Below, piece by piece: positions 6,701 to 27,483 of a stretch of 64,000 bases of DNA. A program made the translations under genes and the position numbers. The notes below the pieces were generated by a model, which ran no database searches, was not told where the DNA came from, and saw nothing but the letters and a program-made list of their open reading frames with translations. Position 1 is the first letter of the stretch; each line of letters starts with the position of its first letter. Source of the DNA: an uncultured Methanosarcinales archaeon (GTDB taxonomy: Archaea > Nanobdellota > Nanobdellia > Woesearchaeales > GW2011-AR9); assembly GCA_964604645.1 (NCBI GenBank), contig CAZRZP010000002.1, positions 13,739-77,738 of the forward strand, in the 5' to 3' direction.

Positions 6701-9700
6701 AAAGCAAGCTAAGTTTACGTTAAGTGGAGTTCATTACGAATTAATTGTTGAATGTGTTGATGATTTTGGTAATAAGCAGGAGAAGAAGAAATCTTTAGTT
6801 TTCAATTTAGATCAAAAAATTCAAATAATTGCTCCTAAAATGAAACAAGTTCTTTCTAAGACTAGTTTACAGTTTGAAGTTAGAACAACTGTAGCTGCCG
6901 ATTGTGTTTTACAGCAAGTTAAACCGACAGCTCAACAAAAGGCAATCTTCAATAAACAAGACGGAACAACTTCTAAACATCACAAGACGGCTTTCATACA
7001 TGGATTTACGCAAGGAGAATATGCAGCTGCTTACAAAGCTGTTTGTACTGAACAATTAAACCCTAATGCCAAAAAGGTAGAAGCACATTTCCACTTCATA
7101 ATTGATTTCCTTTCTCCAAATACTAAAATTACTTTAGAAGAAGGTAGCAGGAAAGTTACTCCTATAAAATACGGTTGGGAAGAAATATTTGTAAATGAAG
7201 CTGAAGTAACTCTTGCATGTGATGCTGGATCTACTGGTTATCAATGTGACAAGATTAAATATTGTTTAGGAAAAGGTTGCAGTAACCCTAAAGACACAAA
7301 GTATCAAGATTACTCATCTACATTCTCAGTTAAGAAATCTACTCCTATTTGTTATTATTCAACTGATAAGGGGGGTAGTAAATTTCCAATAGTTTACTGT
7401 GGAGATATTTTAGTAAATGGTTTTGGAATTACCATGGAAAAACCTGAACCTCAGTTAATTGATGGTGAAGTTTGGGGATTCAGTTCCAAACCTAAGTTTG
7501 ACTGGCAACTAATTACTTTAGTTCCTTCTTTAGAATGCGCGTTTGATTTCAAGAAAGGTTTTGATTTTAAGAAAGTGTCAGCTAAACAAAAATTAACTAA
7601 AGATAAAGGGAAATATTTGTTTAAACAGTTCCCTGGAACCCTGCCGGCTTTTGATAGTAAGGGAAGCGTAAAAGAAGTATTCGTTAAATGTAATAATGCA
7701 GGAGAGATTAGTCCTGAACAGAAATTCTTTTTAGAATTTGATCCAACTCCTCCTAAAATCTTGGAAGCTAAAGCTACTCCAAAATCTCTAATTGAAGGAA
7801 ATTCTGTTCAATTAATGATAAAAACTGATGATCGTAGCATTTGTAAATTTTCAGATACTTCAAATAGCAAGTCAAGTGCAGAATTTCAAGCAATGAAATT
7901 TTCTTTTGCAAAAGATAAAGCCGGTAAGCCAATTTTTGGAAAAGAGCATAAAATTCCATTTGCAATTTCTTTTAAAGGTAAAAAGAAAAATTTCCGTCTT
8001 ACAACTCAATGTCAAAATGGGGCGGGTTTGTTAAGTAAACAGAAAGATATCTTATTTTCGGTTGATTATACGGTTGCAGGTAATATTGAAAAAATTTCAC
8101 ATGAAGGTGGTTATGTTAAAGATAAAAAAACTACTTTGAAAGTAAACACTAACAAAAATGCAAATTGTGAATATACAATTGACGGAAAAACAAAGAAATT
8201 TGATAAAACTGGTGGAACGGAACATAGTACTGTAATTGATTCCAGTAAGGAAGGAAAATATACTATTCCGGTTAAATGTACAATGGGTAAACAAGTTGCG
8301 AATGGTAAAGCTGGGTTTGAAGTTGACAGAACTGCTCCTAAAGTAAATAAAATTGATGATGGATTATACACTTGCGGTGCTGAAAACCTCTCAGTGATGG
8401 TTTATACTCAGGAAAAGAAAATTGCAAATTACGAATATGAAATCTATGATCATGGAGAAACTAAAAAAATTGGTGTGAAAAAGGTTTCAGGAATAGATTA
8501 CCCTAAATTAATTGCAAGTCCAAAATTAGTTCAAACAAAAAAAGTAGGAAAAAATACACCTTTGAAGATTAACATTCGTTCACTTTTCCCTGGCAAGAAT
8601 TTAAGTGATTTCTTTAATCATACATTACATGTTAAAGTCAGAGCTTCTGATGAAGCAGATAATATTGGAAAATATAACAAAAGTGATGGGTTCTTTTTGG
8701 TAAACAGTACTCATCCGGCTTGTGTTAAAGATACCTCTGCCCCTATACTTACAGTAAATCCTGTAGAAATCAAATCTTGTGAAGAGAGAGCAGTTAAAAT
8801 TACTTGTGAAGATGAAGTTGGCTGTAAAGAAATAGCATATGGAATTTCTGTAAAACCTACTTGTAATGCAACTGCACAATATAATGGTAAAAATATTTTA
8901 TTTAATACAACTTCATACTTATGTTATCAAGCAAACGATACTGTTAACAATAAAGCAACTGGAAAAGATTTAATTAAAGTTCCAGATGAAGATGGTGATG
9001 GGATTTTAGATTCTTGTGATAAATGTCCTAAAACGAAAGCTGGGAAGATAGCAGACGGGCAGGGTTGTACTGCTGGCCAGACGGCTTTAAATGAAACAAC
9101 TGGTAAAACTAATTTAACTGCCGCTCAGAAAAAAATTGATTCAGACAGTGACACTTTACCTGATGCTTGGGAGGATTATTATGATTCTTTAAGTTGCGAA
9201 TTAGATTCAAAGAAAGCTGATTCAGATGGCAATGGTATTTTGGACGGAGCTGAAGATTACGATAATGATGGTGCATCAAATTATCAAGAATATCTTAGCG
9301 ATACAGATCCGTGTGTAGAAGATGACGATTTCTTATTTGATGATACAAAGAAATTACCTGGAGCCACTCCTGTTACTGATGATAAAGCAGATAAACCTAC
9401 TACGCCAACTCTTCCTGGAGAAACAAAAAAAGAAACAGATTATCTGCCGTTAATATTATTCATTATTGGTTTATTGATGGTGTTAGGTGGAACTGGTTAT
9501 TTAATTTATTATTATAAATATAAGCAGCCTGAACCAACAACAGCTAAACCTTCTTTTAAGCCAAAAATAGCTGAACCATTACCTGAAAAAATAAGTCCAG
9601 CATTAAGAGGTCGGCGGAAAAAATTAAGGGAAAGAGCAAGAGAATCCATCTTTGGTTTATTCAGTAAAAAATCAGATACAATTCCACATGTCGAATCTGC

Positions 9701-9935
9701 TTTAGACAGCAGAAAAACTCCGCATGGAAAGATTAAAGCAGCTGCAGATTCATACGTTAAACATAAGGGTTTAATCAAGCCAGGATTGAAATCTCATGAA
9801 AAATCTATCTTTGATAAATTAGAATCTCTTTCTAAGAAAAGTAAAAATAAAAGTATCAATTCCGTTATAGATAAAGGTGAAGCGGAAAACTTATTTGCAA
9901 AACTAAAGAAAATAACTGAGAAGAGGAAGAAGTGA
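3705..9935 (+). CDS. Giant (2076 aa) cell-surface protein: signal peptide, Cys-rich modules, PEGA/carboxypeptidase-regulatory-like beta domains, FN3-like domain, thrombospondin type 3-like Ca-binding Asp repeats, C-terminal TM anchor with basic tail
   Basis: N-terminal hydrophobic signal (FFVVLALVLAFSVNA); DxDxDGxxD repeats at nt ~8980-9340; TM helix LPLILFIIGLLMVLGGTGYLIYYY at nt 9443-9514 followed by a K/R-rich tail. Confidence 0.75.
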   Translation: MVNKKRGIFFVVLALVLAFSVNAQTGCDIDPASSTFCTSITIDNPIPGKFIAGAACDTVDECEEVRCDHADTAVLQCQVMELEKCKFLGKQKNGIEGKAVTQESLCTVQGCCEVSKGDSCTVVQTTKIGCNYIGISGAKFTKMVGGKCGTCSGDLKKVSIAFKVVDKDGAVQDVSVTPIGGTAVKTDSKGEVVFKDLLANADAPYVFSVSKSGYVDQSISVKTADKDIEKDVKLVKIEGVLDLTVKVLDLQNKPVTATISLKGTQSPSPKEGSTVKFDQLPAGKYDITASAAGYESQKKTETFQKDTTPTVTFQLKPTSKVGVTVKTVRDNQPQPGAEIFLNGKFHTISQYPNGDKFIPLIVTKDGQKFTISAKYKEYASDPLTFTINKGQQLTKTLILKKTKGECTIDGTNPTKKVAKLDGKAAKGKEEVELTWTKPCPEVDGYKLIKEYKKGDKDVKEEFTLPLAQTKFSDSDVEWGETYKYSIKVIYTDGKKDGTTGTRISEETSVDVTLGAEACAGLSVGTQFCDPKEPNKIKICGSKQEIIAGATCQSGFYCSPSGKGVACKSDAQCKKNNGLFSLFSTKEKCYGSFTGGKPANFCVYQPTKSIVNSCKSCADKEKPIKSCYDYTSEDACKVNSCLTEKCNWVKPGQADDAVISDFGSIYQGYDEKSMFALPDFGKGFCVPEKKYEAKDKCGLCSNDEKIFNNFFCTADICTGLGSCYSQYNLNECKTCSDIPTSKNNCAQYKTKQECTGGNDKSGVSKNTFEVIAGSEDNCAWNRCGWDTDSLKCFKDGNANKKSDCSELNDESGNCRIDITPPVAKLLTKDLSIISLGEPKVQIEVDDTHAVNKKTPQNLHSQRNKIKELKYCLTPAVGTDTCTSDKYTTFSFDNTFLFKGTADIDIAKHFTKPIPGILYKLKFFALDKYLNQGDVQESLLFIDTTIPDFKINTQENVIGDKVQLTAYLSDLSEPASCKFSIKPIIAQDTHTPIVAARKDNVKQAKFTLSGVHYELIVECVDDFGNKQEKKKSLVFNLDQKIQIIAPKMKQVLSKTSLQFEVRTTVAADCVLQQVKPTAQQKAIFNKQDGTTSKHHKTAFIHGFTQGEYAAAYKAVCTEQLNPNAKKVEAHFHFIIDFLSPNTKITLEEGSRKVTPIKYGWEEIFVNEAEVTLACDAGSTGYQCDKIKYCLGKGCSNPKDTKYQDYSSTFSVKKSTPICYYSTDKGGSKFPIVYCGDILVNGFGITMEKPEPQLIDGEVWGFSSKPKFDWQLITLVPSLECAFDFKKGFDFKKVSAKQKLTKDKGKYLFKQFPGTLPAFDSKGSVKEVFVKCNNAGEISPEQKFFLEFDPTPPKILEAKATPKSLIEGNSVQLMIKTDDRSICKFSDTSNSKSSAEFQAMKFSFAKDKAGKPIFGKEHKIPFAISFKGKKKNFRLTTQCQNGAGLLSKQKDILFSVDYTVAGNIEKISHEGGYVKDKKTTLKVNTNKNANCEYTIDGKTKKFDKTGGTEHSTVIDSSKEGKYTIPVKCTMGKQVANGKAGFEVDRTAPKVNKIDDGLYTCGAENLSVMVYTQEKKIANYEYEIYDHGETKKIGVKKVSGIDYPKLIASPKLVQTKKVGKNTPLKINIRSLFPGKNLSDFFNHTLHVKVRASDEADNIGKYNKSDGFFLVNSTHPACVKDTSAPILTVNPVEIKSCEERAVKITCEDEVGCKEIAYGISVKPTCNATAQYNGKNILFNTTSYLCYQANDTVNNKATGKDLIKVPDEDGDGILDSCDKCPKTKAGKIADGQGCTAGQTALNETTGKTNLTAAQKKIDSDSDTLPDAWEDYYDSLSCELDSKKADSDGNGILDGAEDYDNDGASNYQEYLSDTDPCVEDDDFLFDDTKKLPGATPVTDDKADKPTTPTLPGETKKETDYLPLILFIIGLLMVLGGTGYLIYYYKYKQPEPTTAKPSFKPKIAEPLPEKISPALRGRRKKLRERARESIFGLFSKKSDTIPHVESALDSRKTPHGKIKAAADSYVKHKGLIKPGLKSHEKSIFDKLESLSKKSKNKSINSVIDKGEAENLFAKLKKITEKRKK

Positions 9936-10498
9936 TGTTGTCAAAAAAAGGGATGGCAATTGGCCAAATCTTTATTTTCATTGTTGCTGCTGTTACTTTT
10001 ACTTTAGTTCTTTTATTTGGTTATCAAAAAATAACTGGTTTTTTAGAGACGGGAGAACAAGTTGAATTTATTCAATTTAAAAATCATTTAGAATCCTCCA
10101 TTCAAAAGATTTATACTGAATATGGTGCAATTAGAAAAACTACTTTTCATCCTCCTGGGCAGTATACGCAAGTTTGTTTTGTTGATTTTGAGTTTGTACA
10201 TAAGAAAACAGATATTGATTTACTCTGCGAAAAAGACCCTTTTGCTTGTGGTACTTTAGAAGATGCAAGTGCAAAATTTGAAGATATTACAGCCAATGTT
10301 TTTCTAACCCCTATTGCTCCAGTTCCTATTAAAACGCATAAGATTAAGGTAGAAGCACTGGAAAAAGCAAGTGGTTTTGATAAACATATCCCAAAAGGTT
10401 TTCTCTGTTTGTCTATCTCTGGTGGACAATTTGAATTAACTATGGAAGGTATGGGGGATCACACTCTTCTCTGGGAGCCAAAGAAAGATGGCAAATAA
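9935..10498 (+). CDS. Pilin-like protein (class III signal peptide)
   Basis: MLSKKGMAIGQ + hydrophobic helix; TGATG overlap with the giant gene (a GTG at 9932 is an alternative start). Confidence 0.5.
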   Translation: MLSKKGMAIGQIFIFIVAAVTFTLVLLFGYQKITGFLETGEQVEFIQFKNHLESSIQKIYTEYGAIRKTTFHPPGQYTQVCFVDFEFVHKKTDIDLLCEKDPFACGTLEDASAKFEDITANVFLTPIAPVPIKTHKIKVEALEKASGFDKHIPKGFLCLSISGGQFELTMEGMGDHTLLWEPKKDGK

Positions 10499-11576
10499 AG
10501 GACAAGTTCAAGTTACTTTTAATTGGGTTTATGTATTAGTTGCTGGTGCTATTATACTTTTATTCTTTGCTGGTCTAGTTATTAGACAGAAAGCTGTATC
10601 TGAACAGAAGTTAAGTATTGATTTAACACAGACGATGGAATCTATCTTTACTGCTGCTGGAGTTTCTGAAAAAACTAAAAATTTTATTGACATTTCTGGT
10701 TTATCGGATAAAGTTTTAGAATTTAGTTGTTCAGATGGAGTAAGTGAATTTGGTCTTCAAGAAAGTCCAAGTAGAATTAGGAATGCTTTAGATCCGTTAT
10801 TTGCTCCAAGAAGTATTAAAGCTCCAAGATTGATATTATGGAGTCTTCCATATAAAATCCCCTATAAAATTATTGATTTTTTGTTTGTTACTTCTTCTAC
10901 AACAAAAATATTTTTTGTGGATAGTGCAACACCAGATCCGTTTGTTGATGAATTTACAAAAGCAACTGCAGACACCAACCCTTTACTTCAAATTAATAGA
11001 GCGACGGTCCAAAGTTTAAACGAAATATTACCTGAAAAGAATTATCATTTGAAAATTGTTTTTTTTGATTCTCCAACATTAACTCTTCCACCAAATTTAG
11101 TGCCGATGCTTGACTCGGCCATTACAGCGGTAAATATTAAAGGCGATGAAATTAGTTTTTATAAAAAGAAAGGTAGCAAGTTTGTTTTAGATGGAACTAC
11201 AAAGTTAGTCTCTTTACCTGCTAAATTAGGTGAAACTTCTAAAAATGATGCAGCCAAATATGCAGCAATTTTTGCACATGATAAAGAGATGTATGAATGT
11301 AATATGCAAAAAGCATTTAGAAGATTTAAGATAATTAATGAAGTATATGGGAATAAACTCGGTTTAATGATAAAGAAGTATAAAGATAGTAAGGATATTT
11401 GTGGACCTTTATTGGAAGAAGGTGTAAAACCAAAATTTGGAAATTTAGTAAGTGCAGTTAACCTTTGTGTCGGTGGAGGGATAATGGATACATGTTCCTC
11501 TATCATAACACCAGCAATAGAATTAAGGACAGCAAATAATGAATTCATACTAAAAAGCTGTATCGGGTTATATTAA
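10488..11576 (+). CDS. Pilin-like secreted protein (class III signal peptide)
   Basis: MANKGQVQV + 20-aa hydrophobic helix; overlaps the upstream gene. Confidence 0.6.
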   Translation: MANKGQVQVTFNWVYVLVAGAIILLFFAGLVIRQKAVSEQKLSIDLTQTMESIFTAAGVSEKTKNFIDISGLSDKVLEFSCSDGVSEFGLQESPSRIRNALDPLFAPRSIKAPRLILWSLPYKIPYKIIDFLFVTSSTTKIFFVDSATPDPFVDEFTKATADTNPLLQINRATVQSLNEILPEKNYHLKIVFFDSPTLTLPPNLVPMLDSAITAVNIKGDEISFYKKKGSKFVLDGTTKLVSLPAKLGETSKNDAAKYAAIFAHDKEMYECNMQKAFRRFKIINEVYGNKLGLMIKKYKDSKDICGPLLEEGVKPKFGNLVSAVNLCVGGGIMDTCSSIITPAIELRTANNEFILKSCIGLY

Positions 11577-11578
11577 TA

Positions 11579-12094
11579 ATGTTGAAAAACAGATTTAAAC
11601 AAAAAAAAGGACAAGTACAGATGTCGGAGACAATTGCAGTCATGTTTATTTTCTTCATTTTAGTTGTTTTTGGATTAATTTTTTATTTTAAATTTTCTAC
11701 AATAGCAGCGCAGCAAGCGGAGGAAGAATTGTTTGGTCAGAAAGCAATTGATACAACTACAAAAGTTATTTTTTTACCTGAATTAATTTGTAGTGATGGT
11801 GAAGCTGAAACGCAAGATTTTTGTTTAGATATGATGAAATTGAAGAGCATGGATGCTGTTACAAAAAAACACTTGAGTGATTATTATTTTGATTTGTTTG
11901 GATACGCTAACATTTCGGTAACTCAAATTTATCCTGTACCAACCGATCAATCAACTTTTACAATTTATTCAAAAAAATTAGACTCATTTACTCGTAAAGA
12001 TCCGACTTTTTTTACAGTATCACTTAAAGATTATCTTACTGGAAGTCAACCAAGTTTTGGTTTAGGTTATGTAACGGTGGAGGTTTATTCTTGA
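11579..12094 (+). CDS. Pilin-like protein (class III signal peptide)
   Basis: KQKKGQVQMSE + hydrophobic helix. Confidence 0.6.
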   Translation: MLKNRFKQKKGQVQMSETIAVMFIFFILVVFGLIFYFKFSTIAAQQAEEELFGQKAIDTTTKVIFLPELICSDGEAETQDFCLDMMKLKSMDAVTKKHLSDYYFDLFGYANISVTQIYPVPTDQSTFTIYSKKLDSFTRKDPTFFTVSLKDYLTGSQPSFGLGYVTVEVYS

Positions 12095-12651
12095 AATTAA
12101 TAAAATCTAAGAAAGCACAGATGGAAATCATTGGTTTAGTTGTAATTGTAATTTTAATCTCTGTTGGTATGCTTTTTTTGACAAAATTCGCTTTACAAGA
12201 TGAACCGGATAAAAAGATTTTTACTAGAAAAGAATTAGCTGCAAGTACAATGGCGGCTTTAATGAAAGCTACTGCTCCTGATTGTAAAGGAAGTTTAACT
12301 TCTATTCCACAAGTTGAAAAACAATTATTGGAAGATTGTGCTGTTCTAAAACTAAATCCGGGAGCTGATTCTAATTATCAATGTACTTTAGGTAACGGTT
12401 TAGTCGATAGCTGTAATTATCTTAAAGCTAAACTTACTGAAATTCTTGAAACTACATTAGGCAAATGGGGTAAAAGCTATGAATTAAGAACGATTATTGT
12501 TAAAAAAGAAGGAACTTTGAAAGGAGATGAAGTTCTAACGATTGTTGGTAAAGATGGTTGCACGGCTAAAGAAAGAGATACTTCAGGTAATTTCTTCATA
12601 CCCTCAACGAAATTAGGGCTAATTCAAAGTGTTTTATACGTTTGTGAATAG
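12091..12651 (+). CDS. Pilin-like protein (class III signal peptide)
   Basis: KSKKAQMEIIGLVVIVILISV; ATGA overlap with the upstream gene. Confidence 0.6.
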   Translation: MKLIKSKKAQMEIIGLVVIVILISVGMLFLTKFALQDEPDKKIFTRKELAASTMAALMKATAPDCKGSLTSIPQVEKQLLEDCAVLKLNPGADSNYQCTLGNGLVDSCNYLKAKLTEILETTLGKWGKSYELRTIIVKKEGTLKGDEVLTIVGKDGCTAKERDTSGNFFIPSTKLGLIQSVLYVCE

Positions 12652-12679
12652 ATAAAACAACAGCAACATTTATATATGA

Positions 12680-12704
12680 TTTTTCTTTCTTTTCATTTAT
12701 AAGA
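12680..12704 (+). promoter_or_regulatory. Oligo-T tract followed by TATA-like box (atttataag) and GGTGA RBS in the only sizeable intergenic gap inside the pilin island
   Basis: tttttctttcttttc then atttataag ~30 nt upstream of ATG 12728; suggests an internal transcription boundary. Confidence 0.35.
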
Positions 12705-12727
12705 GTTAACTGGATAATAAGAGGTGA

Positions 12728-13069
12728 ATGATGATGAAAAAAGGTCAAGGTCTTTCTTTAAATGTAATAATAGTTGCTGCTCTTGCATTAATCGTTTTAG
12801 TTGTGCTAATTGCAGTCTTTACAGGGCGAATTGGATTATTTACTGAAGGGGTTAGTAAGGAAGCTGGTGCAGAATTAGCAAAGATGAAAATTACATATGG
12901 TGAATGTGAACCTACTACTGCTAAAGAATCAGATTTTATGAGCACTTACTCAAAAGCGGCTGATGATACGGCTAGAGGTACTGCGGCAGATGCTTATGAA
13001 AAAGAGATTGCTCGCTGTAAATCTTTTGACACAGAACAACTTTGTGGACAAGGCGCCTGCAAGTGGTGA
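12728..13069 (+). CDS. Small pilin-like protein (class III signal peptide)
   Basis: MMMKKGQGLS + hydrophobic helix; preceded by a GGTGA RBS and TATA-like box. Confidence 0.6.
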   Translation: MMMKKGQGLSLNVIIVAALALIVLVVLIAVFTGRIGLFTEGVSKEAGAELAKMKITYGECEPTTAKESDFMSTYSKAADDTARGTAADAYEKEIARCKSFDTEQLCGQGACKW

Positions 13070-13332
13070 TGATGAAGAAAGCTACTAGCCAGATGTTATG
13101 GGTTGTAGTTGGAGCGGTCATGGCTTTAGTTGTTTTGACTGTTTTATTATTTATTTTTACCAAAAATACCGGGAAAGTACAACTCGGCTTTGAAGATTGT
13201 GCAAGTAAATCCGGCCAATGTATAACAAAAGCTAAATGCAGTAATCAAGAAGGTCGGGTGATACCAACTTTTTCCTGCAATAATGATCCTGACGTTTCAG
13301 ATGATAATAAAAAAATCTGTTGTTTCCCATGA
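13069..13332 (+). CDS. Small pilin-like protein with Cys-rich C-terminus
   Basis: TGATG overlap; MMKKATSQM + hydrophobic helix; 7 Cys in the last 45 aa. Confidence 0.5.
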   Translation: MMKKATSQMLWVVVGAVMALVVLTVLLFIFTKNTGKVQLGFEDCASKSGQCITKAKCSNQEGRVIPTFSCNNDPDVSDDNKKICCFP

Positions 13333-13346
13333 GAGAAACTGTCGAA

Positions 13347-13421
13347 ATGATAGCAAAGTTAATCCTTCTGGCAGTCGGAGCGGGAGTGCTTTTCTTAATA
13401 ATTTGGCGACTAAATCCATAA
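13347..13421 (+). CDS. Possible 24-aa single-TM micropeptide
   Basis: ATG-initiated MIAKLILLAVGAGVLFLIIWRLNP lying between two pilin-like genes; too short to call with confidence. Confidence 0.2.
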   Translation: MIAKLILLAVGAGVLFLIIWRLNP

Positions 13422-13444
13422 AAGGAACGACCGCCGTTTCTAGT

Positions 13445-13552
13445 ATGTTAGTTTATCTACTGATAGCGGCAATTGTGTTGATTATCATATTTTTTTTAGT
13501 TGGAAGAAATGCAGATTTTGGTAAAAGTATCATTCAGGGGTTATTTAGCTGA
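13445..13552 (+). CDS. Possible 35-aa single-TM micropeptide, translationally coupled to the next gene
   Basis: MLVYLLIAAIVLIIIFFLVG...; its stop overlaps the ATG of the 13552 gene (TGATG). Confidence 0.25.
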   Translation: MLVYLLIAAIVLIIIFFLVGRNADFGKSIIQGLFS

Positions 13553-14313
13553 TGGGATTAGGTTCTGTACTGGTGGGGCTTATTGTTACTTTGCTATTGT
13601 TTAGTGTGATTTATTTTGGTTTCTTAGATTCAGATACTGGTGCAATTTTTTTAGCGGATGATGCTTACCGTCAGCAGCTAGAAAATGCTTTAGCTAAAGA
13701 AAAGAAAGAATTTCAAGTGAAGGAAAATACTGAACTTCTTGATAGGTTTGTTTCTGATATTAATAAAATGAAAGGTAAAAAAGCTTGTTTTGCAAGTTAT
13801 ACTCCATTTCCAGCTCTACAAAATAAAAAAATTGACATCAGTTACTCGAGTGGAAATACAAGAATTAGATTTTGGGATGGCAAACAATCAATTGCTAAAC
13901 AAGATTTAGACATAATTCCTTGTGTAATTGGAGGATCAGGTAGTGTAACAAAAAACTTTGATGATATTTATCTGAATAATAAAGATTGGAAAGAAAAAAT
14001 CAAACAAATTAATAGTAACCATTACACAATTGCCGGTCAAATTACCATTTCGGAGGATGACGGTGGAGTTTCAGGTTTAACAGAAAATAGAATTAATTAT
14101 GGTCATGGGGTAGTAGATTTTGAAGATGCAAACTACTTATACACGCCAGATGGAAAACATATATGTTTCTTTCCAACAGTAGATGGTGATGATACTTGTG
14201 ATGGTTTCCAACAAGAAGGGTTAGATGATGATTGTTTAGGGGAAGCCGATGTTTCTGACACTAACTCTATTCCAAGCCAATTAGCAGAAGGAAAATTAAA
14301 AAGATGTAGTTAA
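13552..14313 (+). CDS. Membrane-anchored secreted protein (pilin-like N-terminal helix)
   Basis: N-terminal hydrophobic helix MGLGSVLVGLIVTLLLFSVIYF; Asp/Cys-rich C-terminus. Confidence 0.5.
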   Translation: MGLGSVLVGLIVTLLLFSVIYFGFLDSDTGAIFLADDAYRQQLENALAKEKKEFQVKENTELLDRFVSDINKMKGKKACFASYTPFPALQNKKIDISYSSGNTRIRFWDGKQSIAKQDLDIIPCVIGGSGSVTKNFDDIYLNNKDWKEKIKQINSNHYTIAGQITISEDDGGVSGLTENRINYGHGVVDFEDANYLYTPDGKHICFFPTVDGDDTCDGFQQEGLDDDCLGEADVSDTNSIPSQLAEGKLKRCS

Positions 14314-14336
14314 CTATTAAAAAAACTATTAAAAAA

Positions 14337-15239
14337 ATGAAAAGACCTATCTCAAAAATAATTAGGACTAAAAAAGGGGGAGTTCCTTACACTTTAGTGA
14401 TTTTTATAGGTGTAATTCTAAGTGCAGGAGTTTTGTTATATTTAGTATCTTTAATTATATCTGGATTTGGGGAAAAATCAGTTGAAGAAGTTTGTCGCGG
14501 TAATGTAATTTTTAGAACGTCAGAGTTTTTTGGAGATCAACGTTTAGGTCCGCTTTTATGTCAAACCCAAAAAGTTGAGTTAAGGGGTAATAAGGAAACT
14601 GTTAAAGAACAGATAGCTGAACTGATGCGGAAATGTTGGTATATGTTTGATGAAGGGAAAAGTATTGACGCTTTAGATGGAGAATCAGTTAAGAAAGCAT
14701 TAGGTTGGGAAGATAACAAAAATGGTTGTTTTACTTGTTTCATTGCTGATACTGCTAAAATTGATGGTGGACCGATTTTACCTCACGAATTATTTACTTA
14801 CTTAGAAGATGTAGATCACCCAACTGCTAAAGGCTTAAAGTATTTAGATTATATCCAGTCTTACGGTGGCGATGGTGCGGTTCTAACATTAAGTCCAGTT
14901 ATGGATAATCAAGTTTATGGAATTTCATTTTTATCAAAATCAAAAGATGACAGTAAGTGGACTTGGGGTGACAGCGCAGCTACGGCAGCTTTGGTTACCG
15001 GCACTTTAGCAGTTAAAGCCGGAGTGGCTATTTGCGGGACAGTTATTGGCTGTCCAGTTGGTGTTATTGTTGGTGGTGCTGGTGCCGCAGTTACAGGACT
15101 TGGTTATTTAGCTACAGGAGCATATCATGATGCGAAAAATTTAATTTATGAAGAAGAAAGAGCTGTAAGTACAATTACTTTTGATACACTACAATCGATT
15201 GAAAGGGCTGGATGTGAACAAAAAGAGGGGATACGATGA
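14337..15239 (+). CDS. Pilin-like secreted protein with C-terminal Gly/Ala-rich hydrophobic segment
   Basis: RTKKGGVPYTLVIFIGVILSAGVLLYLV; C-terminal region GTVIGCPVGVIVGGAGAAVTGLGYLATG. Confidence 0.55.
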   Translation: MKRPISKIIRTKKGGVPYTLVIFIGVILSAGVLLYLVSLIISGFGEKSVEEVCRGNVIFRTSEFFGDQRLGPLLCQTQKVELRGNKETVKEQIAELMRKCWYMFDEGKSIDALDGESVKKALGWEDNKNGCFTCFIADTAKIDGGPILPHELFTYLEDVDHPTAKGLKYLDYIQSYGGDGAVLTLSPVMDNQVYGISFLSKSKDDSKWTWGDSAATAALVTGTLAVKAGVAICGTVIGCPVGVIVGGAGAAVTGLGYLATGAYHDAKNLIYEEERAVSTITFDTLQSIERAGCEQKEGIR

Positions 15240-16600
15240 AAAAAGGATTTATTGGCGGGAAAATAGTTGATTTGATAATAGCTTTACTTATTTTATTAGC
15301 ATTAGGAAGTTTCTTTTTTGATATTGAAGATATAAGAGGTTTTTTTGGAGAAACAGCTGCAAAAGTAAAACTAGATTGTGATGCAGATGGGGTTGGTTAT
15401 CCATTAGATAAATGTCCTTGTTTAGATGAAGGTAAAATCCGTAATTCAGATAGATCTCTATTGGGCTGTCCATCTGCCATAAAAAATTCTAAGGAAGCGG
15501 CAAAGGATAAAGATACTTGTTATAAATATGAGCATGACGGGAAATTTTTTGATAAATGTCAGGCAGATGATAAAACTGATTGTTTAACTAGATGTGAAGC
15601 AATGCATTTCAAAAGTGAAAAGGAAACTGAACAGAAATTAGCTGCTTTGGATACCGAGAGTGATTTAGTTATTTCTGATTTAAAAATAGATGGAAAGACG
15701 ATTGAGGAACATAACGGAAAATATAAGATTGATTTCAGCGGTGCCCCAGACAAACCAATAAATTTAGAGGGAAGTATAAGTAATTTAGGTACTGAAGCAG
15801 TTACAAGAACGTTCTTTTTGAAAATAAATATATGTGAACTTAAAACTAATGGTAGGTGTAAAACTAAAATAGTTTATAATAATGATTTTAGTGGAAATAA
15901 ACTAGCTTTTTCTGAAACTCTTGCACCAGGACACAAACAATCTTTTGATTTTCATACTCTTGTAGGCTACAAAGGAGATTATTGTGATAGCAAGAAAGAA
16001 AGCGAATGTATATTAGAATTAATTATAGACCCAGATAATGAAATTGGAGAGATAGGAGAAACTAATAATAAACAGAAATTAACTTTATCTGTAGAGAATC
16101 AATTAGTTTCAAATTCATTCAAGAGATTTCAGATTGAAATAATCAATGCCGGACCTAAAGATGGACCTCTAATACAAAGGTATTGTCCAATAGAATTAGG
16201 AGTACCAGACTATGCTGATTGCCTCTTGAAATTATCACAAGAATACCAGGGTGTTGATGGAGAATTTCCAAAAAATATCAGGAGCGATGGCAATTGTTGG
16301 GTGTTAAGTACTGATTTTGATGTTATTGATGAAGATGTTGGAGCGGGTGCATTTAAACAAGGTTATGTTATCAAGCATATCTCTAGTCAACATTTGAATC
16401 CATTTGAAATATATCACGAGACGGATGAAGATTCAAAAAATAATTTTATTGATCAAAGTAGAGTTTGGCAGGCAGATTCTAAAGGGGATTTAATTTGCAA
16501 TAAGAATTTTTGGAACTTATGCGATCAAGTCAATCAAGATCAAATTTTATTCATAGGAAGTACACCGTACACTTGTGATGGTAAGGAATGGAAACAATAA
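15236..16600 (+). CDS. Pilin-like large secreted protein (class III signal peptide)
   Basis: MKKGFIGGKIVDLIIALLILLALG; ATGA overlap with the upstream gene. Confidence 0.55.
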   Translation: MKKGFIGGKIVDLIIALLILLALGSFFFDIEDIRGFFGETAAKVKLDCDADGVGYPLDKCPCLDEGKIRNSDRSLLGCPSAIKNSKEAAKDKDTCYKYEHDGKFFDKCQADDKTDCLTRCEAMHFKSEKETEQKLAALDTESDLVISDLKIDGKTIEEHNGKYKIDFSGAPDKPINLEGSISNLGTEAVTRTFFLKINICELKTNGRCKTKIVYNNDFSGNKLAFSETLAPGHKQSFDFHTLVGYKGDYCDSKKESECILELIIDPDNEIGEIGETNNKQKLTLSVENQLVSNSFKRFQIEIINAGPKDGPLIQRYCPIELGVPDYADCLLKLSQEYQGVDGEFPKNIRSDGNCWVLSTDFDVIDEDVGAGAFKQGYVIKHISSQHLNPFEIYHETDEDSKNNFIDQSRVWQADSKGDLICNKNFWNLCDQVNQDQILFIGSTPYTCDGKEWKQ

Positions 16601-16603
16601 ACA

Positions 16604-17269
16604 ATGGGAAAAATTACCAAGCCAGGCAAAAGTAAAGGATTCATACTTTCAGCACAAGAATTAGTTGGTTTGGTAATTATAGTAATTATTATAGTATTTC
16701 TTACTTCGCTAGGTTCTAAATATTCTGAGTTATTTTTAGAAGATAATGCTGGTGAAAGAGATTTAAACAATTTTATGGATGAAGTTATTAAATTTTCAGA
16801 AAAAGCTAGAGATAATAGTGTGAAAGCTACGTCCATCCGTTTACCTGAAAAAACTGCGCTGTTTAGTATTTGGAGTAATTATAAAAATGAGGTGGTCCGT
16901 TGTTCAGACTTTGAAGAGCATTGGCTTAATCCAGGTGAGAAATGTAAAGGGGATTGTGTTTGTTTGTTAAGAGTTAAAAGTTCTGAATTTAGAGAAGCAG
17001 GTGGAGATACTGGAACTCAAAAAGGAATGGCTTGCGGTACACCAAAATCTGTAAAAGATATTACTCCAGAAGTGATTGCTTGTCGTGAAGTTCCGAATGA
17101 TTTCTTGTTTTATGGGGTTGATTGGGTAGCATGGGATAATTTTGCTGGTGATAGGGGTAAGAATTTAGCCATGAATTTTGTTAAAAAAAATAATACGGTT
17201 TATGTTTGTAAAAATCCGCCTTGTAATATTCCAGTTAATCCAATTAAACATCCTACTAAATCCAAATAA
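16604..17269 (+). CDS. Pilin-like secreted Cys-rich protein
   Basis: KSKGFILSAQELVGLVIIVIIIVFL. Confidence 0.5.
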   Translation: MGKITKPGKSKGFILSAQELVGLVIIVIIIVFLTSLGSKYSELFLEDNAGERDLNNFMDEVIKFSEKARDNSVKATSIRLPEKTALFSIWSNYKNEVVRCSDFEEHWLNPGEKCKGDCVCLLRVKSSEFREAGGDTGTQKGMACGTPKSVKDITPEVIACREVPNDFLFYGVDWVAWDNFAGDRGKNLAMNFVKKNNTVYVCKNPPCNIPVNPIKHPTKSK

Positions 17270-17270
17270 A

Positions 17271-17663
17271 ATGAATAAAAAAGCTTTTGAGATGAGTGCC
17301 ATCGCTATCGTTAAATTAGTGGCAGTAATGTTATTAGCAATGGTAGCTCTAAATATTGTTATTACTTTTGGAGGGAAGGATGCAGCTATAATTAAAACAA
17401 CAAGTGAAGATATCAGGATGATGGTAAATGTTCTTGCAGGAATTTCTGGAGATGCTGTTGTTAAATACCCTCAAGATCTTGCTGGATACAAGTTAGAATT
17501 GACTTCTGCTAGTATTTCAATAACTGCTGACGCAAGTCCTCATTACACTTTTTTTTCATTACCAGATAAATTTATTGCTAAAGGTAAGATAGAAAATACG
17601 AAAGAAGTTTGTTTATTCAAAAATAAACGCGAAATAGTTTTGAGTGGGTGTGCAAATGGATAG
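17271..17663 (+). CDS. Small pilin-like protein, MNKK family paralog
   Basis: MNKKAFEMSAIAIVKLVAVMLLAMVALNIV; the ORF-track start at 17178 overlaps the previous gene, so the start is placed at the internal MNKK ATG (17271). Confidence 0.5.
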   Translation: MNKKAFEMSAIAIVKLVAVMLLAMVALNIVITFGGKDAAIIKTTSEDIRMMVNVLAGISGDAVVKYPQDLAGYKLELTSASISITADASPHYTFFSLPDKFIAKGKIENTKEVCLFKNKREIVLSGCANG

Positions 17664-22732: not shown

Positions 22733-23824
22733 TCAAACAGCCATTGATCTTCTTATTGGTTTGTCGTACTGATAATCTTTAATAACAAAATCATCAATAG
22801 TCAATTCATCAAAAGGTTTCTTACTTATTTCAACCGTTGGTAGTTTTTTTGGTTCTCTAGATAATTGTTGCAGAATTGCAGTAACGTGATCATATTTTTT
22901 TTCATTAGAACTTTCTGGTAAATTTTTATTAATCCACTCTAAAACTGCTAAATATTCAGTTCTATCTGAAACACCTCTTATCTTTTTTTGTAGCTGATTA
23001 AAGTTTTGTTGATACCATTCTCCTCTTTGATTTAAACCTGAATAAAAATGTGCATCTCCAAAAGAATGGATAAAAGTTTTAGGGTTCATTCCAACTTCTT
23101 GCGCAATAATTTGTGTAAGCAAAGCATAACTTGCTATATTATATGGGACTCCCAAAAACTCATCACAACTTCTTTGATATAGTTGCATTTCAAGATTTCC
23201 ATCACCATCTGAAGTTGCTTGAAACATAACATGGCAAGGAGGTAATGACATCTTTGGAACATCTCCAGGTTGCCACGCACTAACAATGTGCTTTTTACCC
23301 ATTGGTTTCTTTTTAAGTCCTTCAATCATATTTTTAAGTTGATCAATCTCAACAATTTTTCCTTTTTCTTTATCGTAATACTCCCAATTTCTCCATTGCT
23401 TTCCATAAATTGGCCCAGCATCCCCAAACCTTTCTGCAAATTCTGGTTCTTCTTTTATTCTTTGGCCATATTCACTTAGGGCCTCTTCCCAATTTTCAGA
23501 ATATTTTTTCATTCCTTCTGAAAAAATTCTTTCTTTTACTAAACTGGGTAGATTATGTTGAAAAGCATCCCTTCTCCAGATTTTAACTTTGTTATCTTCA
23601 AGGTATTTGATGTTTGTCTCTCCTCTCATAAACCAGATTAATTCATGAATCAATCCTTTATGAAACATTTTTTTTGTTGTTAACAAAGGGAAACCTTCCC
23701 TTAAATTGTAACTGTTTTGAGAACCAAACAAAGAAACTAATCCCGAGCCCTTACTTCCCATTTTAAAATTTGAACGAGGGGATGTTAATATTTCACGTGA
23801 ATGATCTAAATATTGCTTTACCAT
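22733..23824 (-). CDS. thyA: Thymidylate synthase ThyA (with two insertions relative to canonical ThyA)
   Basis: Collinear with E. coli ThyA: GFPLLTTKK, IHELIWF, PIYGKQWR, catalytic LPPCH, QLYQRSCD, NIASYALL, GDAHFY; about 50-aa and 45-aa insertions. Confidence 0.9.
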   Translation of the reverse strand: MVKQYLDHSREILTSPRSNFKMGSKGSGLVSLFGSQNSYNLREGFPLLTTKKMFHKGLIHELIWFMRGETNIKYLEDNKVKIWRRDAFQHNLPSLVKERIFSEGMKKYSENWEEALSEYGQRIKEEPEFAERFGDAGPIYGKQWRNWEYYDKEKGKIVEIDQLKNMIEGLKKKPMGKKHIVSAWQPGDVPKMSLPPCHVMFQATSDGDGNLEMQLYQRSCDEFLGVPYNIASYALLTQIIAQEVGMNPKTFIHSFGDAHFYSGLNQRGEWYQQNFNQLQKKIRGVSDRTEYLAVLEWINKNLPESSNEKKYDHVTAILQQLSREPKKLPTVEISKKPFDELTIDDFVIKDYQYDKPIRRSMAV

Positions 23825-24350: not shown

Positions 24351-25598
24351 TTACAAATCGTTATTGAATATTTTTGGTAACCTAATACTTTGCTGTTCCT
24401 GTTTGTTATAATTCTTTCCTTGATAAAGAAAGTCAGAAGGTCTTCGTAGCCTATAAACTTGAAAACTAGTGATATTGGTTCTTGGTGTCCACATTGTTCC
24501 GGATCTTTCGTCAATAGTAATTTCACATAACATATGTGATCCATGATCTGAATCTAATCCTCCAAAACCATCTCCTGCATTGATTAATCCTGCTTCATGT
24601 GTTGAAACTTTTCCCTGATTTGCTGGAAGTTGAATCATTCTCATTAAAAGATAGGGTGGAACGCTTACTGCAGGTGTTGTAAGGACAAGTAAACTTTCTT
24701 GAAATCTTCCATAAAGATTTCCATCATTTCCACAATGCACCCGTTGATAATATTCTTTAGCAGAATGTGTTCCAGGACCTTTTCCAATTTCAATAGGTTT
24801 TTTGCTGTAATGTTCCACCATTCTTAATGCAACATGATCTCCACCATCTTTTGGACTAAGTTCTGGTTTGACAAATACTTGGTTATGGCGAATCACTAAT
24901 TCAGGAACTGGAACATTATTTTCCCAAAATAATGGCCATTCTGATTTATGTATATCTTGAATGACTTTACCTTCAATAGGTTTAATGTCGGTTCCAGTAA
25001 TTAATTGTGCAAGAGAATCTCCTGGAGATATAACACAGGGGTTAACAAGAGGTGTAACAAGTAAATATATATCTCCTTTATAATTCTGAGGGATGATGTT
25101 ATACTCATCAGAATAATCAGTAATTCCTCTTATGTCAAGAAACATTCTACCTGAACTGCTTTTAGGTTCAATTACGCCTTGCAGAGAATCTGGTTTTGGA
25201 TATGATAGAAGATGATCTAACATCTCTGAATTTTTTGAATACTTTTTAAAGTCGATAGTTCCTTCAATTTTTATCGCATAAGTATGATTGCGTTGCAAGA
25301 TGGCTCCATTATTTCCAGAGATCTTTCTTGCCATTTGTTTTTGAAGCATCTTTTTAACACTATAATTTGCTCCTGGTTTTCTCATTACTCCGATTTCCCA
25401 AATTTCATTAGAATTGCGTAGATTAAGTGTGCATGATTCAACATCTTCTTCTTCAAAACTTTCTCCAACAGGTAGAATGCCTTCTTTAATAAGAAACTGC
25501 AGTTCTTGATGGGGACACACACCATAAGGAGTAATTAATGGAAAGCTTTCTATTTGTTTTAATAATGATTTTACCCTTTCTTCCAATTTAATTTTCAT
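24351..25598 (-). CDS. Hypothetical protein, possibly dUTPase/dCTP-deaminase-fold (DCD-like) nucleotide enzyme
   Basis: C-terminal region AGLINAGDGFGG resembles the dUTPase-superfamily Gly-rich motif; operon with thyA; the assignment is speculative. Confidence 0.3.
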   Translation of the reverse strand: MKIKLEERVKSLLKQIESFPLITPYGVCPHQELQFLIKEGILPVGESFEEEDVESCTLNLRNSNEIWEIGVMRKPGANYSVKKMLQKQMARKISGNNGAILQRNHTYAIKIEGTIDFKKYSKNSEMLDHLLSYPKPDSLQGVIEPKSSSGRMFLDIRGITDYSDEYNIIPQNYKGDIYLLVTPLVNPCVISPGDSLAQLITGTDIKPIEGKVIQDIHKSEWPLFWENNVPVPELVIRHNQVFVKPELSPKDGGDHVALRMVEHYSKKPIEIGKGPGTHSAKEYYQRVHCGNDGNLYGRFQESLLVLTTPAVSVPPYLLMRMIQLPANQGKVSTHEAGLINAGDGFGGLDSDHGSHMLCEITIDERSGTMWTPRTNITSFQVYRLRRPSDFLYQGKNYNKQEQQSIRLPKIFNNDL

Positions 25599-26111: not shown

Positions 26112-26253
26112 TTGAGATTATTTAGAAACCTCTTCTCATAAGTTATCTAGATCTCAGAATTATTAAAATAGGCTTAAATCTGCTTAATTTTATGAAAGAT
26201 TTATATAATTTGGACATTTCATTACTTATTAATAGGAACTAATCAAATATACT

Positions 26254-27483
26254 ATGAAAAAATATATTCCGCCATTAGCCCTTTTGATGGGATTGTATGC
26301 AGCTGATGCAGAAGCTAAAACTTATAGAGTTAAGAGCAATAAGACCACATTAGAAAGTGTAGCACGAGTTAATAATTTGTCAATAGAATCTGTTCTTGCA
26401 TGTAATCCTAATATGTCTAAACGTCCTGGTCATATTGTTAAGAAAGGAGAGAAAGTGTTAATTGCAAAAAGCCACATTGTAAAAAAGGGGGAAACTTATA
26501 GTGGCATTTCTCATTTATATGATTTACCGATGCGGCAGTTAGATTCTTACAATCAAACAAGGAAAATATATCCTGGGAAAAAAGTATCGGTACCTTGCAA
26601 AGAAAAATGCCGTACTGAACGTTATGATAGCGGTTTAGAATTATGCATTGTCCCCCAAAATGGTGATAAAGGAAGAAAACTAATGGGAAATGATAGATGC
26701 CAAGATTATTTTGATCAGGGCAAATTGGAAGAAGCTAAAATACAGTGTCAATTTTATAATCCCCAAGAAGGAAATTTAGTGGAAATAACTAAGAAAGACC
26801 TTGAAAAACCAATTACAAAAGAAGGCAATATTAAATTATATGAATTAGTTAGATGTAATTTTCCTTGGTTAATTCCTAGGAAACATCGCATTGCAAAAGA
26901 TGGTGAATGGTTCTTCCGTTATATGTATTTTGACAAAGAACTTGGAAGGAAAATGGAGGCATTGCGTAAGAGAACAGGAAAACCAATAAGAACTGCAAGA
27001 GATGCAGTTAAATGGGAAAATCAAATTTATCCATGTACTCCTTTTATTTTAGATTCATTAGCTAGGTTAGGTCGCCGTGTTCAAGATCAGGAAAAAAAGA
27101 AAGAATTGTTTAAATTAATGTCACATTGTAGAAAGCATGGTTTTCGTCCATTTGTTTACAATTGGCGAATGAATGAAGAGGTTGATTTTAAACCTAGAAG
27201 TGGGAGTGATCATGTTTTTGGAAAAGCAGTAGATATTACAACTCCTTATTACATTATACGCAATTCTGTAGAAAGAACTTTTGGCAAAAATGGGGTAGGT
27301 AAAGGTCAAACTACCACTCACTTAAGTACTGTTAAATCTCACACACATAATCGAAAAAGACGATGGGCTTATGGAAAATGGAGAAGGCCAATGGAATTAG
27401 ATGTGTCGCCTCAAAGATTGGGTTCGGTTTTGTCAAGAACAAGAGAGGCAATCAAAGAGTGGAGTGAATGGGCTAGAAATTAA
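26254..27483 (+). CDS. Secreted LysM-LysM-LAS (M15/D-Ala-D-Ala carboxypeptidase-like) zinc peptidase; predicted peptidoglycan hydrolase
   Basis: Signal peptide MKKYIPPLALLMGLYAADA; two LysM-like segments; zinc motif S-D-H-x6-D (DHVFGKAVD) plus H-x-H (HTH), characteristic of LAS enzymes. Confidence 0.55.
   Translation: MKKYIPPLALLMGLYAADAEAKTYRVKSNKTTLESVARVNNLSIESVLACNPNMSKRPGHIVKKGEKVLIAKSHIVKKGETYSGISHLYDLPMRQLDSYNQTRKIYPGKKVSVPCKEKCRTERYDSGLELCIVPQNGDKGRKLMGNDRCQDYFDQGKLEEAKIQCQFYNPQEGNLVEITKKDLEKPITKEGNIKLYELVRCNFPWLIPRKHRIAKDGEWFFRYMYFDKELGRKMEALRKRTGKPIRTARDAVKWENQIYPCTPFILDSLARLGRRVQDQEKKKELFKLMSHCRKHGFRPFVYNWRMNEEVDFKPRSGSDHVFGKAVDITTPYYIIRNSVERTFGKNGVGKGQTTTHLSTVKSHTHNRKRRWAYGKWRRPMELDVSPQRLGSVLSRTREAIKEWSEWARN

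Follow-up and report, generated by a model that had tools for sequence, protein, structure and literature searches.

The 64-kb window studied here (the whole 64,000-nucleotide stretch of contig CAZRZP010000002.1) carries a gene for a 409-amino-acid (aa) protein, referred to below as the query, whose C-terminal domain is homologous to the M15A peptidases and is of the MepK/YcbK subtype. This domain is preceded by a predicted signal peptide, two LysM domains and a middle module (Table 1). It is probable, judging from this arrangement, that the query is a Sec-exported, LysM-anchored zinc M15A protein which cleaves a peptide bond of bacterial peptidoglycan. The protein would leave a Woesearchaeota-type DPANN cell by the Sec route, and its LysM pair would dock it on a glycan containing N-acetylglucosamine (GlcNAc), most plausibly bacterial peptidoglycan. 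Zinc would be held by H320, D327 and H356, substrate would be bound by R298 and N303 of an "SGYR...N" motif, and the M15A domain would hydrolyse a bond of the stem peptide or of the cross-link. The outcome may be to open or loosen, where the two cells meet, the wall of a bacterium that is host, prey or competitor, or to free muropeptides for scavenging, such that wall cleavage would serve attachment, entry or scavenging at the bacterial cell surface. What we infer from the protein is its secretion, its binding of zinc, peptidoglycan as its substrate, which bond it cuts and its role in ecology. Bond specificity cannot be read from the homology, because M15A relatives span DD-carboxypeptidases, LD-endopeptidases (MepK) and L-Ala-D-Glu peptidases.

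A divergent M15A domain behind two LysM domains

The open reading frame (ORF) named in an earlier sequence-only reading of this DNA is real. Its first ATG was taken as the start of the coding sequence (CDS) because an in-frame stop lies directly upstream of it, and 14 contigs from independent assemblies carry the 409-aa protein in identical form. To find relatives of the query, a word-indexed homolog search of 5.8 billion clusters was run, which returned two full-length relatives only and missed P0005, the closest relative (44% identity). A profile of the C-terminal halves was then run over 1.84 billion representatives with no word index, and returned 69 matches. The resulting family alignment contains 71 sequences (the query and 70 relatives), and within it Pfam labels Peptidase_M15_3 in 46 and Peptidase_M15_2 (DUF882/YcbK) in 32. 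The relatives P0010 and P0022 exceed the Pfam threshold for M15, while the query has no such match. It belongs with P0002, P0003, P0005 and P0006 to a subclade in which Pfam sees LysM or nothing.

The assignment of this subclade to M15A comes from profile comparison and from structure prediction. When its five Pfam-invisible members were compared by hhalign with 25 bona fide M15_2/3 proteins, the match reached a probability of 94.1% (E=1.3e-7). The family profile matched the solved structures of a VanY-like enzyme (4mph, 7.8e-5), an L-Ala-D-Glu endopeptidase (8q2g, 3e-4) and 1lbu (4.5e-4), with further matches to ChiX, LdcB, Ply500 and 5opz and weakly to Hedgehog; profiles built from three sequences returned LysM or noise only from the PDB. 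Subclade member P0002 matched the phage endolysin phrog_894 (E=9.4e-7), and its Pfam matches to M15_2, M15_3 and M15_4 were weak and sub-threshold, at 13-14 bits. A first AlphaFold run on a three-sequence alignment gave a mean pLDDT of 40.8 and was confident for the LysM pair alone. With a 23-sequence alignment, aa 186-378 were modelled at a pLDDT of 91.6 and a pTM of 0.85, and the best Foldseek matches of this model in BFVD, which holds viral models, were phage proteins named "Peptidase M15A, C-terminal" and "Murein endopeptidase K" (probability about 1.0). The model has the fold of the Hedgehog/DD-peptidase group.

An insertion of ~48 aa, which forms a beta-hairpin and two helices directly before the "HGFR" motif, is modelled at a pLDDT >90. 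In the alignment (A4) it occurs only in the query, P0002, P0003, P0005 and P0006, and it probably explains why the domain is not recognised by Pfam or by Foldseek against the PDB. The sequence-only reading had likened the catalytic region to M15 and lysostaphin-type enzymes and had proposed HHpred/Pfam as a check of both domain types. Its M15 assignment is borne out by the profile, hhalign and AlphaFold results and not by any direct Pfam or PDB match, the subtype being MepK/YcbK-like and not that of an H-x-H enzyme; Pfam recognised LysM2 in the query and not M15.

The two LysM-like segments of that reading were both recovered. LysM2 is canonical, and served as the positive control in hhalign (98%, E=2.8e-13); solved LysM structures were matched by the family profile in the same region. 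LysM1 is divergent and falls below the Pfam threshold (LysM_OapA, E=0.15), but hhalign pairs it with LysM units at 78% (E=1.8e-5), and the equivalent segment is significant in Pfam, as LysM or LysM_OapA, in P0008, P0010, P0016 and P0022. Both units were modelled by AlphaFold as beta-alpha-alpha-beta, with a pLDDT of 70-82. The N-terminus, read earlier as a signal peptide, has a Sec-type layout of MKK, a hydrophobic core and A-E-A ahead of K22, with a top 11-residue Kyte-Doolittle mean of 1.75. All close relatives begin in a comparable way, the hydrophobic stretch being closed by AQA, VEA or ADA in P0002, P0003, P0005 and P0007, and secretion of the 409-aa protein is therefore predicted.

Table 1. 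Features of the query gene and its upstream region, in window coordinates (BRE, B recognition element)
Feature	Residues (aa)	Position	Strand	Basis
Putative archaeal promoter element		26194..26207	+	BRE-like purine-rich GAAAGA, then TATA-like TTTATATA; read from sequence
CDS, secreted LysM-LysM-M15A protein (predicted)	1-409	26254..27483	+	ORF list; stop TAA at 27481-27483
Sec-type signal peptide MKKYIPPLALLMGLYAADAEA (predicted)	1-21	26254..26316	+	n/h/c layout, A-x-A site, predicted cleavage before K22
LysM1, divergent	22-72	26317..26469	+	hhalign, AlphaFold, Pfam matches of relatives
LysM2, canonical	74-114	26473..26595	+	Pfam PF01476, E=1.6e-6, 28.4 bits against a 20.9-bit cutoff
Family-specific middle module	116-185	26599..26808	+	consensus "FPSGLxL...FYDP...G.PLL.V...DL"
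Divergent M15A LAS zinc-peptidase domain (MepK/YcbK, Peptidase_M15_3/M15_2-like)	186-375	26809..27378	+	profile, hhalign, AlphaFold
Subclade insertion, ~48 aa, beta-hairpin and two helices	246-293	26989..27132	+	directly before "HGFR" (aa 295-298)
Zinc-binding motif S318-D-H320-V-F-G323-K-A325-V-D327	318-327	27205..27234	+	H320 and D327 predicted zinc ligands
Third ligand (predicted) H356-L-S358	356-358	27319..27327	+	His in 69/71; Ser at the Asp of the family's H-x-D
Query-only His-containing insertion, T359..H365 ("SHTH" at aa 362-365); the 6 inserted aa are about T359-T364	359-365	27328..27348	+	absent from 70/70 relatives; loop after ligand strand (AlphaFold)
Basic C-terminal tail	376-409	27379..27480	+	predicted helix 387-408 (low-confidence AlphaFold); isoelectric point (pI) 10.6

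The active site and the readings it allows

The family is marked by the pattern [S/H]-G-[Y/F]-R-x4-N, S-x-H-x2-G-x-A-x-D, G-x-G-x-G, T-H-[VIL]-D and R-W. Of this pattern the query retains R298, N303, S318, H320, G323, A325, D327, G347, G349, G351, H356 and W371. The S-D-H-x6-D signature described in the sequence-only reading is present at S318..D327 and, in the alignment, falls on the S-x-H-x2-G-x-A-x-D motif of M15 enzymes with solved structures. Its columns are conserved in the family (S in 65/71, H320 in 69/71, G in 69/71 and D327 in 68/71), as that reading had expected of a zinc-ligand motif; the ligand role of the H-x6-D residues comes from the LAS/M15 literature (PMC3927764). The SGYR-type substrate motif reads H295-G-F-R298-P-F-V-Y-N303, with the Arg in 69 and the Asn in 64 of the 71 sequences.

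The other zinc motif proposed at that stage, an H-x-H in "SHTH", does not stand. It lies within an insertion found in the query and in none of its 70 relatives, and the conserved third His is instead H356, which sits on an AlphaFold beta-strand (355-361) and whose context THLS is paired by hhalign with T-H-[IV]-D. "SHTH" resembles the H-x-H of the Streptomyces albus DD-carboxypeptidase, which reads "DHTH" at this point. That the 6-aa insertion arose by duplication was considered and set aside, as the only repeat seen was a 5-nucleotide (nt) "CTCAC", too short to mean anything.

Several results weigh against the reading of the query as a secreted, active murein peptidase. Searched against Pfam, NCBIfam and PDB sequences, it gave LysM matches only and none to a peptidase; its catalytic domain had no match in PHROG, and Foldseek of the confident domain model found no significant match in the PDB. 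The signal peptide was called by eye and from hydropathy only. LysM also binds chitin and other GlcNAc polymers (PMC12352652). The most direct objection concerns the Asp of H-x-D, which is present in 67 of the 71 sequences and is replaced by another residue only in the query (Ser358) and in P0005 (Gly). In P0005 (8001..9275 of its contig, L012), the G-x-G motif, G296, F297 and G323 have been lost in addition to this Asp, and its active site looks like one in decay. Together this points to a relaxed catalytic constraint in the query lineage. As the near-invariant Asp is Ser358 in the query, its catalytic competence is uncertain.

What the lost Asp does bears on this question, and our literature search found no paper that defines its role. 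By position it is on the same strand and has the same facing as the ligand His, and LAS subfamilies vary in where their acid/base residues are placed, occurring as H-x-H, E-x-x-H or D-x-x-H (PMC3927764, PMC8052667, bioRxiv 10.64898/2026.04.21.719881); for these reasons the Asp would be catalytic or would position the water.

The first alternative, which we regard as rather unlikely, is that the query is a pseudo-peptidase that binds zinc and the stem peptide without cleaving it, and serves, with its two LysM domains and a peptide-binding cleft, as an adhesin or lectin for peptidoglycan, either secreted or kept at the surface, by which the archaeon attaches to bacteria. The replacements at the H-x-D Asp in the query and P0005, and the other losses of P0005, are what this would predict, and there is a precedent in the LAS protein Sonic hedgehog, which keeps its zinc site and was long deemed "pseudo-active" (PMC8052667). 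Against it, the query keeps all the other near-invariant residues, including the three metal ligands and R298/N303. In LysPH, from another M15 subfamily, the D156A substitution at the analogous Asp lowered activity and did not abolish it (bioRxiv 10.64898/2026.04.21.719881), and LAS enzymes that lack an Asp at this place use the His of H-x-H (PMC3927764). The query insertion brings two His, H363 and H365, beside the ligand strand, and these could, as a speculation, compensate for the lost Asp.

A more elaborate proposal, which we hold to be unlikely, is that the Pfam-invisible subclade with its ~48-aa remodelled domain contains, in the query, a re-wired active site. Either His would have taken over from Asp as the catalytic base, in convergence with the H-x-H of S. 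albus-type enzymes and perhaps with a new bond specificity, or the domain would have become a zinc-dependent lectin of murein peptides for holding bacterial hosts.

A target other than murein is quite improbable. The protein would in that case act on a GlcNAc polymer in the envelope of its own cell or of a host archaeon (pseudomurein or a glycosylated S-layer) or on chitin, in archaeon-archaeon episymbiosis or in self-remodelling. The characterised relatives of the catalytic domain (MepK, phage endolysins, DD- and LD-peptidases) all act on murein peptides with D-amino acids. The peptides of pseudomurein are not known to contain any but L-amino acids. Genes for wall synthesis were not seen in the neighbourhood, and almost no peptidoglycan hydrolases were found in pseudomurein producers by Strock et al. 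(2025, PLoS Biol, PMC12352652). What speaks for such a target is that cultured DPANN all have archaeal hosts (PMC11537232, PMC8204110), that LysM binds pseudomurein and chitin besides murein, as far as this is given by reference 32 cited in PMC12352652, and that the metagenome-assembled genome (MAG) of one relative is labelled Methanosarcinales, a label that could not be verified. Bacterial peptidoglycan, proposed as the target from the outset, is still the most plausible one for a LysM-LysM-M15 protein of an archaeon without known murein, and active cleavage of it is the reading that we prefer.

Host, genomic setting and relatives

The gene lies in the interior of a 402-kb contig with archaeal housekeeping genes on both sides. 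Its 5' neighbours encode RPA, Hjc, RadA, ThyA, a dCTP deaminase and a TRAM protein, and its 3' neighbours an FAD oxidase, PEP synthase and Rpr2. The named relatives of RadA, at 76-84% identity, are all "Candidatus Woesearchaeota" or "Nanoarchaeota archaeon", which makes the host a DPANN archaeon of the Woesearchaeota type. Several independent assemblies contain the identical locus. A check of codon usage had been suggested, and it showed no foreign signature: the gene is typical of the window, with a GC content of 0.347 against a mean of 0.337 for the other 45 ORFs, and with GC, GC content at third codon positions (GC3) and codon usage at z = 0.2-0.4, within 0.4 standard deviations of these ORFs.

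A putative promoter, proposed from the sequence, consists of GAAAGA followed by the TATA-like TTTATATA (26200..26207), which starts 54 nt 5' of the ATG. Motifs of the TTTAWATA type occur no more than 80 nt upstream of 11 of the 46 window ORFs; for random windows of 80 nt the share is 2.7%. Across the window these motifs fit archaeal TATA boxes, often with short leaders.

With these data it is extremely improbable, and effectively refuted, that the gene is not archaeal but a bacterial or phage endolysin brought in by mis-assembly, mis-binning, an integrated virus or a transfer of very recent date. Phage endolysins and peptidases do head the structural and PHROG matches of the domain, and both M15 and LysM are typical of bacteria or phages; yet the gene has its archaeal flanks, native composition and host-type TATA-like element, no viral genes were seen near it, a six-frame scan of the 64-kb window found no second LysM or M15 gene, and homologues of the same architecture are found in archaeal contexts. 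Contamination, a prophage and recent horizontal transfer were rejected in view of the archaeal neighbours, the composition and the TATA-like element.

The relatives share an architecture of a signal peptide, two or three LysM domains, a basic linker, the "FPSGL...FYDP" module and M15A. Relatives of this kind come from MAGs of Woesearchaeota, Nanoarchaeota and Nanoarchaeia, where they are annotated as "LysM peptidoglycan-binding domain-containing protein", and a distant tail of the family includes FlgJ-like and NlpC-associated multidomain proteins. Partial synteny was seen between the loci of two relatives, and local BLAST found no other orthologues common to the relatives' loci and the window. 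Because the same-architecture family is spread through Nanoarchaeota and Woesearchaeota, the bacterial or phage ancestry of the domains is old, and any transfer was ancient and not recent. The earlier suggestion of horizontal acquisition holds in that sense only; for a recent event it is contradicted by the composition, the TATA-like element and the spread of the architecture.

The MAG of P0002 (L010, CAYFJX010000001.1), the only one returned by a scan of contigs of GTDB representative genomes, is titled "uncultured Methanosarcinales archaeon". This title could not be verified; if it is correct, the family extends beyond Nanoarchaeota/Woesearchaeota, to which all other named relatives belong, and if not, the genome is mislabelled. 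A further family member, P0015 (257 aa), is recorded on a 119,022-bp contig, as is P0005 (k127_88813, 119,022 bp), and one genome probably encodes both as paralogues.

The remaining parts of the query are less easily placed. The middle module is kept across the 71-sequence alignment and many relatives match it in the deep search, and no match to it was found in Pfam or the PDB. It is acidic (pI 5.4) inside an otherwise very basic protein, has 4-5 Cys in the query subclade, and was modelled by AlphaFold with low confidence from a shallow alignment. The mature protein is strongly basic, with a pI of about 9.9, and Lys/Arg-rich tails stand at the place of its C-terminal tail in P0002 and P0003 as well.

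Elsewhere in the window, a 2,076-aa ORF (3705..9935, +) has as its sole domain a CarboxypepD_reg/PEGA-like one (aa 244-319). It is followed by a run of same-strand ORFs to 17663 without Pfam match, apart from a weak CARDB match at 15236..16600, and the cluster 3705..17663 (+) may consist of surface or appendage genes. No SLT or other murein-hydrolase domain was found in the 2,076-aa ORF, and no SLT domain anywhere in the window. On the 5' side of the query gene, the dCTP deaminase is of the long form (DCD_N, 415 aa; 24351..25598, -) and the thymidylate synthase is a 363-aa ThyA-type protein (22733..23824, -), with a 150-aa ORF without Pfam match between them. Contig L004 has two small ORFs in place of ThyA, a strain-level variant. 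ARAGORN found 0 tRNA genes, and 0 Rfam families reached the gathering score, in the 64-kb window, a long span for that.

Comparison with known hydrolases and meaning for DPANN biology

The closest known systems are the MepK/YcbK-type M15A proteins, such as Escherichia coli MepK and the phage M15A endolysins, which are like the query in fold and motif set. YcbK-type proteins also have the H-x6-D and third His and, like the query, are without conserved H-x-H and E-x-x-H (PMC3927764). The query differs from them in falling below the Pfam thresholds, in having Ser for the Asp of H-x-D and a unique 6-aa His insertion after the ligand strand, and in a beta-hairpin insertion after an N-terminal "EF" motif, to which the subclade adds the ~48 aa before "HGFR". 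It is also archaeal, and fused to two LysM domains and a module without known match. The S. albus G D-Ala-D-Ala carboxypeptidase (1LBU, the MEROPS M15A holotype) has the same LAS zinc site, its match to the family profile covering S-x-H-x2-G-x-A-x-D. It is an H-x-H enzyme (PMC3927764), and the query "SHTH" resembles its motif; the query motif, however, is out of alignment with the ligand strand and is part of an insertion that is not conserved.

Proteins of this general kind have already been catalogued in archaea. In 3,706 archaeal genomes, Strock et al. found modular peptidoglycan hydrolases in about 5%, especially prominently in Nanoarchaeota and with signal peptides in 32% of these hydrolases, and their supplementary table has "LysM+Peptidase_M15, Sec" entries from Woesearchaeales and SCGC-AAA011-G17 (PMC12352652). 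These entries are like the query in combining a wall-binding domain, a catalytic domain and a Sec signal in Nanoarchaeota. One of them comes from GCA_016179945.1, the assembly that encodes P0022 (two LysM and a Peptidase_M15_3 above the Pfam cutoff); it is probably P0022, though the accessions could not be matched. The screen needed a Pfam match for the catalytic domain (PMC12352652), so the query and P0002, P0003, P0005 and P0006 would be missed by it; under its definition the query has the Pfam wall-binding domain (LysM), while its catalytic domain is undetected by Pfam although homologous to M15_3. The experiments of that study were made with haloarchaeal M23 and glucosaminidase enzymes, and not with M15 or DPANN proteins (PMC12352652).

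The query is accordingly a divergent member of the already catalogued archaeal LysM+M15 class, an extension of it and not a discovery. What is new is modest, and comprises the subclade invisible to a Pfam-based definition, its remodelled domain and the altered active-site motif of the query. To our knowledge, experiments have yet to be made with any M15 or DPANN member.

Earlier papers on DPANN took giant lytic transglycosylases as evidence of bacterial hosts or prey (PMC8204110, PMC9723730, PMC10936187), and such enzymes often carry LysM ("LysM+SLT" rows, PMC12352652). They are like the query in lineage and in their presumed purpose, which would be to attack or attach to bacterial murein. They differ from it in cleaving glycan strands and in reaching up to 3,000 aa, whereas the query has 409 aa and is of a peptide-cleaving class.

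Whether DPANN of the Woesearchaeota/Pacearchaeota type live on bacteria or on archaea has so far been argued mostly from these giant genes. A small secreted LysM-M15A protein, widespread in the same lineages, would be a second, independent murein-directed tool, and one that is easy to express and test. Its subclade, annotated as "LysM protein" or "hypothetical", also indicates that Pfam-based surveys undercount archaeal peptidoglycan hydrolases, and the change from Asp to Ser that activity should not be assumed from a domain label. If active, the LysM-M15A enzymes are candidate antibacterials. If true, the proposal of a re-wired base or of a lectin would offer a molecular way into the idea, as yet unproven, of some Woesearchaeota as episymbionts or predators of bacteria and not of archaea.

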